A stretch of 63,320 bases of DNA, counting the filler, from Globobulimina sp. (lineage: Eukaryota), in assembly GCA_003354225.1 (NCBI GenBank). It is 51 parts of 51 records of this genome, joined end to end, with 100 filler letters (N's around TTAATTAATTAA, not from the genome) between each part and the next. Parts side by side here need not be neighbours in the genome. Positions count along the whole stretch, not along the records: positions 4,977 to 6,120 come from PIVH01022435.1; 50 more parts are not named here. One strand, 5' to 3'. The position numbers and the translations under genes are program-made. The notes under the pieces were generated by a model. It was given only the letters and a program-made list of their open reading frames with translations. It did no database searches and was not told the origin of the DNA. Shown here piece after piece: positions 4,424-31,000 of the stretch; position 1 is the stretch's first letter, and each line of letters begins with the position of its first letter.

Positions 4424-4976
4424 TTTAGAATTGACTACTGCTAACTAACTATTTTCTGAGAGCTAATACACAAAACTTCGAAGAACACTTAGTGGCAGTT
4501 AGTGCATTGCATGCAAGGAGCGTGAATTAATTAAAAGTACTCTTTCCTCTCCTATCTATGCATGTATATGTAATCAAAAAGTCATTTGAAAAATTCGCCA
4601 TTATATAGATATTCGATAATGGTTAATTTAAACAAGATCATGCATATATTGCTATTAACTGCGATCGTGATGATTTTGCATTCATTAAAGCGTCAAGAAC
4701 CGCGTGGATCATATACCGCAGTATCATTCCTTTCAATATCAATTATTTTATCAAATTATGATCTATTTACAAGCTGCACGAGATTCCAACCACATATCTG
4801 GTTGGAACATTTATTTAAATGCAGGGCGAGATTATTATTTATTTGATGGGGTTCATCAAAGGCACCGTCTTAAGGCNNNNNNNNNNNNNNNNNNNNNNNN
4901 NNNNNNNNNNNNNNNNNNNNTTAATTAATTAANNNNNNNNNNNNNNNNNNNNNNNNNNNNNNNNNNNNNNNNNNNN

Positions 4977-6027
4977 TCTCATCCGAACCAATCTCAACAA
5001 CATTTTCATTCTCAACATCCATGTCATTTACTTGCCTTTGAGAAGGATGTTGCGATAAATAATAACATTCTGGTGCAGAAATCGATGGACTAGTAATTGT
5101 TGCAAGACCTTGATGTTTTCTAATATGATTTGCTAAACGAATTGGTTCTATACGTCGCATATCCCATTGTATTTCTGTCGCACGATTTTTTATAATATTT
5201 TCCCATACATCTGAATCAACAATTGATTTTAAACTTACATTGCCAATGGTAATCCAAAATTCTCCAGATGTGCGAGGAGCTTCAGCCACATATCTTTTAG
5301 GTATTGTCCATGTATCATCATCACCTACCATTCCATGTTCCATCATCTGTGTATCAAACCCACCTTTGGTACATGTGACCTCACTAAAACCATCCACAAT
5401 CAAACCAAATACAGAATTTTCGTTAAATCCATGAGCCCAATTATTCTCAGAAAAACTTAATAAATCATGTTATATGCGTTTGTAAACAAGTTATGTACAG
5501 ACAATACAAACGCAATAATCTTTTTATTTGTTTACAAACGCAATAATCACTAATTCAAAACAATTATTACCATAAATATGCACACGGAATAACATCCATG
5601 ATAGCTTTAGCTACAAAAAATGATTTTAAATGATTACTTGGACCAAAAATATGAATCCAAGCAGTACCTTTACGAAGATCTCCTTCTGATACGGCAGTGT
5701 TAAACCAACGCAAAAACACTTTTGCTGAAGAATGAAAACTTTCATCGATTGAGCATGGCACCACTTTTGGTCTGGTTGGTCTATTAGATTTATTTAATTC
5801 TGTTCGATATTCATTAATTTTTCTGGAATGATGGAAGAAAAATGTAGGATATTCACTCATGATCTCATCATTTGTCCAATTTGCTTCTAATAATTCAATA
5901 ATTCGTGCTGTAATTTTGGTATGCTTTTTATATCCAGTTTGATACCATTCTTTAATTTCACGTCTATGTTTTAAACAGTTTAATATCATTTTATGAACAA
6001 ATGTGACATCTTCATCAAAAATCAAAT
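4977..6027 (-). CDS. Spliced SF3 helicase resembling the CRESS-DNA virus Rep helicase domain (exons 6027-5571 and 5455-4977), partial at both ends
   Basis: EIMSEYPTFFFHH oligomerisation-like segment, Walker A-like IHIFGPSNHLKS, WAHGF..GLIVDGF Walker B context, TIPKRY, motif C-like WITIGN, Arg-finger-like IIKNRA. A GT-AG intron restores the frame. Confidence 0.65.
5456..5570 (-). other. 115-nt spliceosomal intron in the Rep-like gene, with internal inverted and direct repeats
   Basis: TG|GTAATA...TTAAG|T joins the two ORFs in frame (YLC|FSENNWAHGF). 15-bp perfect inverted repeat at 5475-5489/5528-5542. Confidence 0.75.
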
Positions 6028-6220
6028 CTATATCATCGTATTTGAATACATAAATGAAAAAATTGCGGAATGCTTGCGGTGTTGACTGTGTGTATTAAAC
6101 ATATTATACAATTTATTATGNNNNNNNNNNNNNNNNNNNNNNNNNNNNNNNNNNNNNNNNNNNNTTAATTAATTAANNNNNNNNNNNNNNNNNNNNNNNN
6201 NNNNNNNNNNNNNNNNNNNN

Positions 6221-7464: not shown

Positions 7465-8095
7465 CTGGACTTTATGCCCTATTTTATGTTGATCGGTTTT
7501 GCTCTTTTTTTAGCTTCAACATCAGCCCATCTGGGTGTTCTGTGACGTCTCCAAATGTTAATGTGCTACATTCCGCAAATCGTAGACACCCGGCAAAGGA
7601 GAATAAGGCCACAAGGAATGTACGGTAATCTATAAAACGGCCAGACAACATGGCTGCCTTGTGAAGGGCTACAAGAACTGGGCGGGAGGCAGCAACAGTC
7701 CGACACTGGGGCGGGGGAGCAACCCGTTTTGCACCTTCTATAAAAGCACGACAAATCGCACTGTCAGAAGGGGGAGACAAGTTACACATGCGATGCAACC
7801 ACGAAATGCCATAAAGAGCTGAGGCTAGCGAGGCGGGAGAAATACCCTTGGCTCGTCGGTGCTCTAAATATAAAATGACATGCATGGGATTAGCTGGCAA
7901 AGCTGTGAACCCATGTTCATTTGTGAAACTATAAAAATCGCGCAACACCACAGAATATGCAGCTAAGGTAGCAGGTGCTTTACTTGACAACAGTATATTG
8001 ACTGCACTGTTATGGAGATCATTTAAGTGCGATGGGAGAGTGATACCAGTTGCAAGACTTGTTGACAAATCTAAAATTGTGAAGCTACTGTACAT
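7465..8095 (-). mobile_element. Tyrosine recombinase of DIRS/Ngaro-type retrotransposon, 3'-partial, frameshift in an A run near 7505-7511
   Basis: N-terminal SKAPATLAAY...ILYL...ISWLH core-binding domain and FAGCLRFAEC catalytic Arg box. Removing one A gives KKSKTDQHKIG. Confidence 0.85.
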
Positions 8096-8446
8096 AAAGC
8101 TTGTAATATGTTTCTGCTATTACAGGGAACCAATAACTGTAGGGAGGGAGGGTGGGGCAAGTATAATAATCAATTGAAACAATTAACCAACCCAAAAACT
8201 AGATAACCAACTAGCGATGGAGTGACCAAACAACGTGAATGATGGCCGATCTGATCGGCCGCGGAGCAGGGCTCCGCCTCTTGCGCTGATTGGTCGGCGC
8301 TAATACTTATCGCTTCATTCTACCTCCGTTACACTACGGTAGAAAGGCGATAAGTAATCGCTTTAACAACAACACAATAGTTTACACGCTTTTATTTTGT
8401 CACTCCAAATTATACCAAACACAATGGCTTCCAAATTATAAAATGC

Positions 8447-11196: not shown

Positions 11197-12338
11197 CCGC
11201 ACAACAGTTTGCTCTGTTGATTGTATGCCAATTTCCATTCGTTCCCGCAATTCTCAGACTCTCTCAGCAATGCCATTTGCTTTTGTATGTTTTTGTTTTC
11301 TAATATTTCTTTCAAATTAATTACATTCGAACATTGTATAATTATTTGATTGCTAACTTTCCGCAGCAAAGAAGTGAGCCGATCGTTAGTTGCATAATAC
11401 TGAGACGTGGACCATATCATTCGTATAATTAATATTATCTCTTCCAACAACAATGGTATTTTAGCAGGAGAACATTCTGACAATTTTAAGCATGGCGCTT
11501 TCAAAGTTAATAAGTATTTTAAGTTTTCATTGGCTTCGGCTGACCCAAACTCTATGGAACCCGCCAAATTATCAAACCTTTCTAAATATGTCGATGCCGA
11601 AGCTCGTAATATTAAAATTATATTCACGACGCCTGCTTTGTTCAATTGCTCTCTCACTGAGACCAAATCGATAGTCCTTGCCCGCCAAAATTCGATTTCT
11701 TCCAAAGGTCCAATATCATCGGTTTCGCCGCTCACTGTCTGGTTTTTCACCATTTCTTCAATTTGCCGAGTCCAATGAATGAGAGTTGATTCTAATCTGC
11801 GCACTAATTCTGTATCGGAGGCCAATTTATTGATATCGATGCTGTCCGCATTGCAGTTTATACTTTGTTCTTTCGGGACATATAAAACCGTTTTTCCTTT
11901 TTGTTGGTTTACTGACTCAGTTAAAGCAGCCATAAATTTGTGTAGTTTTTCCGATAAGTCTTTCTGTACAGATTTGGGCCAGGAGGCATTGCCTAAGATG
12001 GTGGGCAGATATATGGTATTCATCATAGACAATAATGATTCTAATCTGTTGCCAGAAATGATGCCATACTGAACATGCTCGCTTGTTTCTGCACTGTTTA
12101 TCAAAGAGACATCGGAATCTTTCAAGAAGAATTGAATCATATTATTGTTGTATTTGGTGGGCGTACCACCTGTGTCAAAAATCACTTTTTGAGTGTTGTT
12201 GTTTCTATAAATCAATAAACGTGTAATATTTGGTGAGGCTAAAAAGTCAGAGATTGTCATTTCGTATTCTTCATTCCATTCATCATCGGAATATGGATTG
12301 AAATTCTTCAAATTTATTTTGCGTCGAATCCATTCAAT
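11197..12338 (-). CDS. Axonemal dynein heavy chain N-terminal region 1 (DNAH2/1-beta-like), internal fragment
   Basis: KGKTVLYVPKE, RRLESTLIHWTRQI, GPLEEIEFWRAR, IRMIWSTSQYY, LLRKVSNQII. Confidence 0.9.
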
Positions 12339-12440
12339 TGNNNNNNNNNNNNNNNNNNNNNNNNNNNNNNNNNNNNNNNNNNNNTTAATTAATTAANNNN
12401 NNNNNNNNNNNNNNNNNNNNNNNNNNNNNNNNNNNNNNNN

Positions 12441-17416: not shown

Positions 17417-18560
17417 CAGCTGCGACCGGCAGACAGCCACCAAAAGATATTACTATGCGTGGTATACAATGGAATAAATTAAAAGGTTCAGCATTAAATA
17501 AATCCATATTTAGCAATATACAAATCAAAGACGACGATATCGATTTAGATTTTACGCTATTAAGTCAATTATGGCGCAAACAAAAGAAAAAAAAGAAGCC
17601 AAGGAAACCCAAAAAAAAAAATAGCGACAAACATAAAAAACGCAGCAAAATTGAATTCTTAGAAGACATGGACGACGGTGGCAAAAAAGCCAGAGTTGCA
17701 AACATCACAATAAAAGCCATCAAAAAAAGCGCAGAGCAATACAGAGACATCATACTGACGATGCAATTTGCAGACGGCGACAAAAACCACGAAGACATTG
17801 TCACTGCCATTCAGAAGATCGTGCCCAACGAAGAGCACATGGCCAAATTCCACGAACATTTTAAAAAAGAAAAATATAAACCAATCGATGTGAAATATTT
17901 TGCCCAAGGAGAGAGATTATGGTATTATTGTCGCAAAATCCCATTAGTATCGCTACGTTGTGAGCTATGGATGTTTAAGTTGCAATTTGCTGAACTATGC
18001 GACGACCAATACAGACATATCCATTTATTACGCGATACCTACAGCAGTATCAATGGCAACAAGCCCATGTTTAAAGTCTTTGAATTGATCCTCGCCATTG
18101 GCAATTATCTAAATTACGGCCATCGGCGTAACGGTGGCGCCAAAGGTATCCGCTTGGATATATTTGACAAATTACGTGATTTGAAAGCCAATAAACCAAG
18201 TTTGCCGGATGAGGATGAAAAGGAGGAGAAAAAGAATGCCATTCCAGATATGGGCACTGATAAATACACGTTGCTAATGTATTTGGTACATATGGTAAAT
18301 AAGAGATATCCCGAATTGAATGACTGGGTCAAAATATTTGATAATTGCAAAGCTTGCATCAAGATAAAAACAGACGAGTTGGAGAAAGATGTCAATTCCA
18401 TTGATAAGAAAGTGAAGAATTTGAAGGTTCAGTTGCGTAAAATGGATGAGGAGAGGCTCCAATTTATAGCGCAGGAGGCGGAAAAGGCGGAAAAGGCGAA
18501 AAAAAAGAAAAAAAAGGAGCAAAAGGAAAATAAAAACGAAGAGTGGGAAGACCCACCGGC
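17417..18560 (+). CDS. Formin FH2 domain protein, fragment
   Basis: MRGIQWNKL lasso, ANITI, ILAIGNYLNYG..GGAKGIRL, TLLMYLV. Confidence 0.9.
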
Positions 18561-29856: not shown

Positions 29857-31000
29857 GATTTAGGATATCCAGTTTATAATATTACTGATATTCCTTTGCC
29901 AAAACAGTATTTTATTCAAGCTGTTATTCAAAGATATACTTATTATGATCGTTCTGATGGTGCACAAATTTGGTTACCAAGACCTGAAATTAATGCAGAA
30001 GGATTATTTACTGCACCAAAAACATTATATTCTGCTGTTATGTCCGTTAATTTAGACACAAACTCAATTGTAAATATTTTATGTGATCAAATTGAAGGAC
30101 CATATGCAAAACCCAATGATACAGATTATATTAAACATGTTAGTATTAAATCAAATTTGTTAACTGAATTTTGGGGGACTTCAATATATTTAGAAGCGTG
30201 TATATTATTACCATATGGTTTTGATACTCATCCAAATGCATCATATCCTTTATTTTTATATCAAGGACATTACCATCGTGATTGGGCAACGCCTGTTGCA
30301 TTTAGTGAAACACCGCCTAATTCATCTTTAACTGGTTATAGTTATGTTGCTGCTCAATATGCGTATTATTTATATTTAAATTGGACAGATCCAAGTGGTA
30401 TTTTTAAAGATAATCGAGGAATGATTATGACAATAAAACATCCGACACCATATTATGATGATAGTTATTCAGTTAACTCAGCCAATTTAGGTCCATACGG
30501 TGAGGCAATTATGACTGAATTAATTCCTTTTGTTGAACATAAGTATCGTGGAATTGGACAAGAATGGGCACGAACAGTATATGGTGGTTCAACAGGAGGA
30601 TGGGAATCAATCGCCACACAAATTTATTATCCAAAGATGTTTAATGGAGCTTGGACGTTTTGTCCTGACCCAGTGTCGTTTAACGCATATTCATCCATCA
30701 ATATATATGAAAATAAAAATGCATATTATTTAGATTCATTTTGGAAGAAAACACCACGAGCATCGCAAAGAGATGATGCAAGTAATCAAATATATCCTGG
30801 ATATGGAGAAATGAGCGGTTTTGGATGGACAACGTGTACTGTCGAAGAAACCAATATTCGGGAATTAGTGTTTGGGGAAAATAGTCGTAGTACGGGGCAA
30901 TATGATATTTGGGAGGCTGTATTTAGTCCATTGGGTCCAAAGGGATATCCACGTCGTTTGTATAACAAAAGAACGGGTGAAATTGATCCAATAACAGTTA
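29857..31000 (+). CDS. Alpha/beta-hydrolase putative esterase of bacterial type, internal fragment
   Basis: GGSTGGWES nucleophile elbow, YYDDSYSVNSANLGPYG, ELIPFVE, CPDPVSF. Confidence 0.85.

Follow-up and report, generated by a model that had tools for sequence, protein, structure and literature searches.

A putative intron-split, Rep-type replication initiator gene of a small and divergent family in a Globobulimina assembly

What kind of protein is encoded by a gene that carries helicase motifs in the order of a viral replication initiator (Rep) and is split by an intron between two of them, and how would such a gene have come to lie in the assembly of a eukaryote? The gene in question occupies a 1,144-bp contig of Globobulimina sp. 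(Eukaryota; assembly GCA_003354225.1), PIVH01022435.1, which makes up positions 4977-6120 of the stretch of DNA analyzed here (hereafter the window, 63,320 nt). It runs off this contig at both sides, 4977 and 6120 being contig ends, a circumstance that the original prediction for this locus had overlooked. That prediction was of a Rep-like superfamily 3 (SF3) helicase, and its helicase part now stands on structure, since the fold modeled for a relative matches viral SF3 helicases first, whereas a link to a Rep or helicase family at the level of sequence was not found. With moderate confidence, we read the contig as most of a nuclear, intron-split gene for a Rep-type replication initiator that belongs to a small, very divergent family.

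Two minus-strand open reading frames (ORFs) make up the gene as it lies on the contig. The first extends from 6094 to 5570 (175 codons; called as 6094..5567) and the second runs from 5469 to the end of the contig (called as 5469..4921). Removal of a GT..AG intron (GT at 5570-5569, AG at 5457-5456) connects them in frame, just as had been proposed, and gives a spliced frame of 334 codons with no stop and no frameshift in either exon. The codon split by this intron, TG/T, would encode Cys, and the joined product would read ...PCAYL-C-FSENNW.... Splicing at 5570-5456 is predicted from sequence and is supported by the colinear alignment of relatives, six of which pass the junction without a gap and place exactly one residue opposite the split codon. 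In another relative-based comparison, with P0001 (51% identical), homology sets in at precisely the residue with which exon B opens, preceded by 14 unrelated, AT-rich-looking residues that end in LLS, and the window intron also reads LLS in the frame of this lead-in, a picture consistent with an identically placed intron in a paralogue or orthologue. Sequencing reads bear on the genomic form. Only one of the three runs of one sample (X1) contained the stretch, as two unitigs (5007-5226 and 5545-5905) that are identical to the window, have no joints, and leave parts of the contig uncovered; the second spans the border between exon A and the intron and therefore shows only the unspliced genomic form.

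That the match of reading frames and motifs did not arise by chance follows from the relatives that this protein has. A phmmer search of 1.84 billion (1.84e9) representative proteins with the second exon (exon 2) as query returned 12 hits, 10 of them real relatives (E = 1.1e-46 to 2.2e-05); P0009 and P0011 were spurious repeat proteins, matched in 8 short stretches, and were left out. The spliced product aligned with P0003 at 45% identity over 317 residues (E = 4e-102) and with P0002 and P0004 at 44% and 36% (306-320 residues, E to 3e-72), and identity to the relatives is spread evenly along the protein. EukProt lists P0002 and P0003 as proteins of the foraminifer Nonionella stella, which we take to be transcriptome-derived, and at 39% identity to one another they constitute two divergent paralogues among the recorded proteins of one foraminifer; P0013, also from EukProt, is 99% identical to P0003 over their overlap and represents the 5' part of the same Nonionella gene. 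P0001 comes from an NCBI contig of 1,353 bp, and the ENA/Logan contigs are longer, with P0006, P0007, and P0012 on 3.4-3.8 kb, P0005 on 5.6 kb, and P0004 on 8 kb. All 8 of the relatives looked up (P0001-P0007 and P0012) are the sole members of their 90% clusters.

Where they are long enough to show it, the relatives are large proteins (755 residues in P0004, 931 in P0002, and approximately 700 in P0013 plus P0003) that carry hundreds of disordered residues, with basic, Cys-rich N-termini and acidic tails. The full-length layout consists of a disordered N-terminus, a putative nuclease domain, a helical bundle, an SF3 (AAA+) helicase, and an acidic tail, of which the contig, with its two exons, spans everything from YVxK through to the tail. 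Other searches added no member to this family. A further homology search found nothing for exon 1 or exon 2 and, with P0003 as query, returned only itself and P0013; ESM Atlas gave no usable match to exon 2; a phmmer comparison of exon 2 with PDB sequences yielded nothing but an unrelated match (E = 0.93); and pattern scans confirmed 0 relatives among 6 matches in IMG/VR, 232 in JGI metagenomes, and 23 in the 185,579 prokaryote genomes of GTDB. By these searches, the family is a rare one, so far mainly from a foraminifer.

What places this family among the SF3 helicases is the fold. An AlphaFold2 model of P0003, built with a 12-row family alignment, has predicted local distance difference test (pLDDT) scores of 80-94 over approximately residues 140-385. 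Its Foldseek matches in PDB were Rep68/Rep40 of adeno-associated virus 2 (AAV2), E1 of bovine papillomavirus (BPV), Vientovirus Rep, B19 NS1, and SV40 large T antigen (E = 7.6e-7 to 1e-3). Among its top 12 matches in BFVD (E = 5.6e-12 to 3.4e-9; 6 of them unnamed), every named row was a Rep from uncultured viruses or from CRESS DNA viruses (circular genomes of single-stranded DNA that encode a Rep); 411 matches reached E <= 1e-3, with parvovirus NS1 and E1 following the CRESS Reps at the top. VIA-align filled ranks 1-23 entirely with viral SF3 helicases (Z = 9.5-12.0), and a Foldseek-independent pass over 48,161 chains did the same for ranks 1-11 (Z = 9.4-11.7), with ORC, Lon, and ClpA at Z <= 9.0; across the VIA-align searches, other AAA+ proteins scored Z <= 9.5. 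The SF3 matches extend over both the helical bundle and the core (residues 135-372), those of general AAA+ proteins over the core alone (approximately 187-354), and the helices at approximately residues 136-185 of the model are part of what aligns with E1, AAV Rep40, and large T antigen. As modeled, then, the family has the AAA+ core with a preceding helical bundle by which we count it among the SF3 helicases, and since no sequence or profile link was significant, this assignment rests on fold and motif order.

The motifs that the original prediction quoted are all present, in their order and places (Table 1), and the two anomalies that it pointed out, Leu for Gly in Walker A and D-G in Walker B, are real and are traits of the whole family besides. 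In Walker A, all 8 family rows keep K[ST] and only 2 of the 8 keep the second Gly, the P-loop pattern being G/x-x-[ST/P]-N-x-x-K-[ST], in short GxSNxxK[ST]; in Walker B, all 9 rows retain the Mg-binding Asp and lack the second acid. The window protein matches neither the canonical Walker A, GxxxxGK[ST], nor the canonical Walker B, hhhhD[DE]. Because both odd sites are common to the whole family, they do not reflect decay of the window copy. Downstream of them lies a conserved family block with the pattern [LM][MI]EH..[VIM]G, and one might speculate that this block, MMEHGMVG in the window, is a B'-like element or offers a substitute acidic residue. The Asn of WITIGN stands opposite TSN, and the Arg of IIKNRA opposite RRI, of circovirus-like Reps in an hhalign alignment that was not significant; we infer that these two residues act as motif C and arginine finger.

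Ahead of the helicase, a domain common to P0002, P0004, and P0013/P0003 contains a conserved H-[WY]-N and, about 50-60 residues on, YV[FL]K. The latter is YVFKYD in the window, a candidate for motif III with its catalytic Tyr, after the pattern of motif III in CRESS Reps. Against ESM Atlas clusters, residues 175-335 of P0004 reach scores of 0.90-0.92, a lead only, and these clusters are mostly Cressdnaviricota with Viral_Rep, Rep_OBD, or Gemini_AL1. An HUH-type nuclease is plausible from these sequences. The earlier statement that the HUH nuclease is not in view holds for most of the domain, which would lie off the contig, but not for its end, where the candidate motif III is visible; the window covers at most this last nuclease motif. 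YVFKY holds a second Tyr four residues past the first, a spacing that resembles that of two-tyrosine Reps, and because this second Tyr is Phe in P0003 and P0013, a single catalytic Tyr seems more likely. Upstream of the putative nuclease domain, P0002 and P0013 carry a CxCxxC-like cluster of Cys residues and a stretch rich in lysine and arginine, and several family members end in an Asp/Glu-rich tail; zinc-binding, nuclear-import, and regulatory functions are possible for these parts.

The gene probably has a further intron at its upstream side, although not where one had been placed. A second acceptor was proposed at 6028/6027, but same-frame homology continues upstream of 6028 (FRNFFIYVFKYDDIDLIF against FRKFMEYVFKYDDINFVY in P0002), and this conserved frame means that no intron ends there. 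The ORF of exon A has no Met before residue 36 and yet is homologous to the relatives from approximately residue 4, and the P0006 ORF begins at the same alignment column as that of the window. Together, these features point to an upstream intron with its acceptor at approximately 6087-6086, and the exon preceding it, off the contig, would carry nuclease motifs I and II.

Table 1. Features of contig PIVH01022435.1 and its predicted Rep-like gene, with positions along the window.
Feature	Positions	Strand	Remarks
Whole contig, 1,144 bp	4977..6120	.	assembly ends at both sides, with N linkers beyond
Predicted 3' end of upstream intron	6086..6120	-	in-frame stop TAA at 6097-6095; candidate acceptor ..acacAG at 6087-6086
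Exon A	5571..6085	-	end of putative nuclease domain, helical bundle, and helicase start up to Walker A; frame open from 6094
YVFKYD, candidate HUH-nuclease motif III (YxxK)	6035..6052	-	YV[FL]K invariant in 5/5 covering rows
Helical bundle ahead of ATPase core (oligomerization-domain-like)	5780..5926	-	approximately helices 136-185 of the P0003 model, mapped by alignment
EIMSEYPTFFFHHSRKI	5866-5816	-	within helical bundle
Walker A variant GPSNHLKS	5621..5644	-	Lys-Ser kept; second Gly replaced by Leu
Intron, GT..AG, 115 nt, phase 2	5456..5570	-	between Walker A and Walker B; predicted splice
Exon B	4977..5455	-	remainder of helicase domain, C-terminal segment, and acidic tail; open to contig end, no stop
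WAHGF	5439-5425	-	motif in exon B
Walker B variant LIVDGF	5386..5403	-	D-G replaces D-D/E; D-G in 9/9 covering family rows
MMEHGMVG, family-specific block	5323..5346	-	Glu nearly invariant
TIPKRY	5307-5290	-	motif in exon B
Motif C WITIGN, candidate sensor-1 Asn	5239..5256	-	Asn in 11/11 rows
Candidate arginine finger IIKNRA	5179..5196	-	Arg in 11/11 rows
YYLSQ, conserved C-terminal segment	5064-5050	-	in exon B

A number of results weigh against reading this gene as one for a Rep. With each exon searched separately, Pfam (E <= 10) and PHROGs returned no Rep or helicase family, the matches to DUF433, DUF1281, STIV_turret, and phrog_18159 being at chance level (all E >= 0.014, below the cut-off), and Pfam returned nothing for 11 relatives (P0001-P0008, P0010, P0012, and P0013; E <= 1 for ten of them and E <= 10 for P0013). 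RNA_helicase (PF00910), Viral_Rep, and Parvo_NS1 (PF01057), the families to which the original prediction had looked for confirmation, were thus matched neither by the exons nor by these relatives. The best match of a family hidden Markov model to PDB sequences was GAPDH (E = 0.25), which stems from a short YVFKYDS-like stretch and was treated as chance. For direct comparison with Reps, a narrow, circovirus-like reference set was drawn from 120 IMG/VR loci with a Walker A pattern; 10 small-genome candidates were examined, of which nine were verified by Pfam (Viral_Rep and RNA_helicase) and used, while L082, without a Pfam hit, was dropped. An hhalign comparison of the family with these nine gave E = 0.095 and a probability of 0.6, which is not significant, in a single alignment that is colinear at Walker A, a WWDGY-like block, Walker B, motif C, and the arginine finger; the N-terminal domain alone gave P = 0.14, with no motif co-alignment. 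The putative motif II reads H-x-N, not HUH or HUQ, and the nuclease domain is modeled with low confidence (pLDDT below 50 in P0004 and approximately 50-60 in P0003). The fold evidence itself comes from a model of P0003 and not of the window's own protein. In addition, NTP hydrolysis may be weak or absent, because Walker B is without its second acid in 9 of 9 family rows and the P-loop without its second Gly in 6 of 8. An intron, too, has parallels outside host genomes, as spliced rep genes are also described in free CRESS viruses (PMC7468197).

If the gene is indeed of Rep type, it would descend from a CRESS-DNA-virus-like or plasmid Rep. Its protein would assemble into a ring, as SF3 helicases do, with NTP bound via the GxSNxxK[ST] P-loop, the Walker B Asp, the motif C Asn, and an arginine finger supplied in trans, and the nicking and joining of single-stranded DNA at an origin would fall to the Tyr of YVxK. 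As for where the gene resides, the correlation of its relative synonymous codon usage (RSCU) with that of 11 pooled other ORFs of the window is 0.89, those ORFs correlating among themselves at 0.45-0.87, and its GC content at third codon positions (GC3), 0.20, lies inside their range of 0.16-0.44. This host-like codon usage, together with the introns, makes it plausible that the gene has been endogenized. One or two introns, disordered relatives of 755-931 residues, and two divergent paralogues in a foraminifer all fit a long nuclear residence, which we infer for the gene of the window as well.

Within this reading, whom such a gene would serve is a question to which we can give only a tentative answer. 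Our leaning, which falls short of an even chance, is toward a gene that still works for a selfish element of its own, resident in the genome (an integrated or transposon-like replicon), because the catalytic-looking residues do not vary among divergent relatives and the large proteins resemble transposases. The more specific proposal that the family represents the transposase/replicase of undescribed foraminiferal rolling-circle elements, in which a single-tyrosine Rep is fused to an SF3 helicase, must be regarded as rather unlikely. Somewhat less doubtful than that proposal is co-option, in which an ancient Rep capture gave rise to a domesticated host gene family with a cellular role that binds NTP and perhaps does not hydrolyze it. 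An intact frame over 334 codons with introns and host-like codon usage would be expected of such a gene, as would the divergence of P0002 and P0003 in one foraminifer's protein set and the absence of the catalytic acid from Walker B throughout the family; the relatives being alone in their 90% clusters, there is also no sign of many near-identical copies. Captured avipoxvirus Reps provide a precedent, expressed and under purifying selection (PMC10193959), but the precedent also cuts the other way, since those Reps often have inactivated catalytic motifs. Here YVxK and H-x-N are kept in all covering rows, which would point to retained nicking activity, and co-option therefore fits the family less easily than a resident selfish element does. 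A dead endogenous viral fossil drifting neutrally would account for the noncanonical Walker A and B sites, for the lack of a start codon near the ORF start, and for a gene present only as a fragment, and we consider it improbable. A pseudogene would hardly keep 334 codons free of stops and frameshifts in DNA of 32% GC or retain identity to its relatives evenly along the protein, its odd motifs are shared by all relatives, and the conservation of the key Tyr, Lys, Asp, Asn, and Arg among members at 25-45% identity, all of them invariant, argues against decay.

The gene might instead not belong to the host at all. If the contig were a piece of a free or episomal CRESS-like single-stranded DNA virus of a foraminifer-like host, co-assembled with host DNA, a spliced rep would be no obstacle, since 36 crucivirus genomes are annotated with spliced Reps and cruciviruses are recorded from a foraminifer metagenome (PMC7468197). 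The contigs of P0006, P0007, and P0012 (3.4-3.8 kb) and of P0005 (5.6 kb) are CRESS-like in size, the catalytic-looking residues are conserved, and CRESS Reps are the top structural matches in BFVD. The full-length relatives of approximately 700-931 residues, hundreds of them disordered, are hard to accommodate in such a virus, however, for compact CRESS Reps are far smaller. P0004 lies on an 8-kb contig, the codon usage of the gene is indistinguishable from that of other window ORFs, the pattern scan of IMG/VR viral contigs confirmed no relative, and the likely second intron and the ORF boundaries held in common with relatives fit a long evolution as a eukaryotic gene, so that we regard a free virus as unlikely. 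Least probable is a protein that is no Rep at all, a cellular AAA+ ATPase whose likeness to SF3 helicases reflects only the general fold. The lack of a significant sequence or profile link to Rep families would be explained in that case, and ClpA, Lon, ORC, and RuvB do match the model at Z = 8-9.5. Yet SF3 helicases take every top rank in four structure searches, with the upstream bundle included in the match; the hhalign comparison, though not significant, aligns all the SF3 motifs in the same order; the ESM Atlas features of the upstream domain resemble those of CRESS Reps; and the prokaryote genomes scanned by pattern hold no relative. To explanations other than these we give a small probability.

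The intron between Walker A and Walker B has features of its own. It contains a perfect 15-nt inverted repeat (5475-5489 and 5528-5542) and a 16-nt direct repeat (5505-5520 and 5533-5548), and its predicted fold, a long hairpin, would place the two splice sites close to each other (-26.4 kcal/mol, z = -2.9). The interval may represent a small foldback insertion or no more than a structured intron, and another copy of it turned up nowhere in the window. Intron gain by duplication was considered on account of a 16-nt, 81% likeness of the exon A/intron border to the start of exon B, and this likeness was judged to be chance in AT-rich sequence.

The surroundings of the contig in the window should not be taken for its surroundings in the genome. 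The window is a chain of 51 segments, each of 1,143-1,144 bp and ordered by length, with linkers that read N..TTAATTAATTAA..N, and since positions 4977-6120 are exactly one whole contig, the adjacent segments give no genomic context. GC content ranges from approximately 27% to 46% per contig, and other contigs code for dynein heavy chain, formin FH2, protein kinase, amino-acid permease, peptidase M54, and zf-CW proteins, which marks the source as an AT-rich eukaryote; a tblastn search of the other 50 contigs found no paralogue of the spliced product. Many of these contigs of about 1.1 kb (for example 11197-12340, 17417-18560, and 29857-31000) are open end to end in a single frame, which suggests long exons or a low intron density in this genome. 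The contig at 6221-7364 encodes, on the minus strand, an SLC12-like amino-acid permease in two overlapping frames by Pfam, its N-terminal part covering profile positions 4-158 and its C-terminal part 365-468; the roughly 200 positions absent between them suggest that sequence was deleted internally or mis-assembled, or that the exon structure is unusual. On another contig, with 42% GC, a minus-strand ORF at 7484-8116 weakly matches a phage-integrase N-terminal SAM-like domain (E = 9.8e-5), and it may derive from a tyrosine-recombinase mobile element (Crypton- or DIRS-like) or from a contaminant.

Rep capture by eukaryotic genomes is already known, and in its general kind the gene described here is familiar. 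Liu et al., in 2011, and Kinsella et al., in 2020, are said to have reported Rep-like genes in Giardia and Entamoeba. To our knowledge, almost nothing has been learned of viruses or transposons in Foraminifera, and our search of the literature brought up no account of such a Rep-like gene in this group. What sets the family apart is its divergence, with curated sequence models missing it entirely; its rarity, with 10 relatives among the 1.84 billion proteins searched; its form, with intron-split genes and proteins two to three times the usual size of a Rep; and its nucleotide site, which is unusual in the same way in all members and yet accompanied by conserved residues for nicking, NTP binding, and ring assembly. 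The conserved D-G of Walker B raises the question of how, or whether, the rings would hydrolyze NTP. If the family is mobile, it would constitute a new class of eukaryotic HUH elements; a co-opted family would be a rare instance in which a Rep has been retained together with its catalytic residues. In both cases, it would offer a first handle on the biology of single-stranded DNA replicons in Foraminifera.

[quoted passage not shown] They differ in that the family has no Pfam match to Viral_Rep, Gemini_AL1, or RNA_helicase and no significant hhalign link to them. Where CRESS Reps have GPPGxGK[ST], D-D, and HUH/HUQ, this family has GxSNxxK[ST], D-G, and H-[WY]-N; it is two to three times longer than they are, with disordered extensions and an acidic tail, and the window gene is interrupted at least once by an intron, which lies between Walker A and Walker B. 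The highest structural scores belong to E1 (Z = 11.7-12.0) and AAV Rep40/68 (Z = 10.1-11.4), over the helical bundle and the ATPase core, but parvovirus NS1/Rep, E1, and large T antigen are only 8-14% identical, Parvo_NS1 is not matched, and their N-terminal domains are of other kinds.

Parallels in setting are the endogenous CRESS Rep elements of protist genomes, for example those of Chromera velia and Polymyxa betae, which likewise represent a Rep-derived gene in the SAR supergroup, and the captured Reps of avipoxviruses, which have been kept, expressed, and placed under selection with altered motifs (PMC10193959). Both are recognizable CRESS lineages, whereas the family of the window is unrecognizable by sequence and retains its catalytic-looking residues. 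Replitrons resemble it in other respects, being eukaryotic, intron-containing genes for large proteins with disordered ends, a Rep-like domain invisible to Pfam, and an adjacent helical domain, and they too are only weakly linked to CRESS Reps (PMC10288648). The same study describes Replitron Y1 Rep transposases as being without a fused helicase, and the SF3 helicase of the window family sets it outside this group. Helitrons offer the other parallel, since their RepHel protein is also a eukaryotic fusion of Rep and helicase with possible rolling-circle movement, but it joins a two-tyrosine Rep to a superfamily 1B (SF1B) helicase (PMC10288648), whereas here the helicase is SF3 and the second Tyr is not conserved. 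If the proposal of foraminiferal rolling-circle elements, doubtful as it is, were to prove true, the family would take its place beside Helitrons and Replitrons as a third kind of eukaryotic HUH transposon and would represent a living intermediate between CRESS viruses and transposons.

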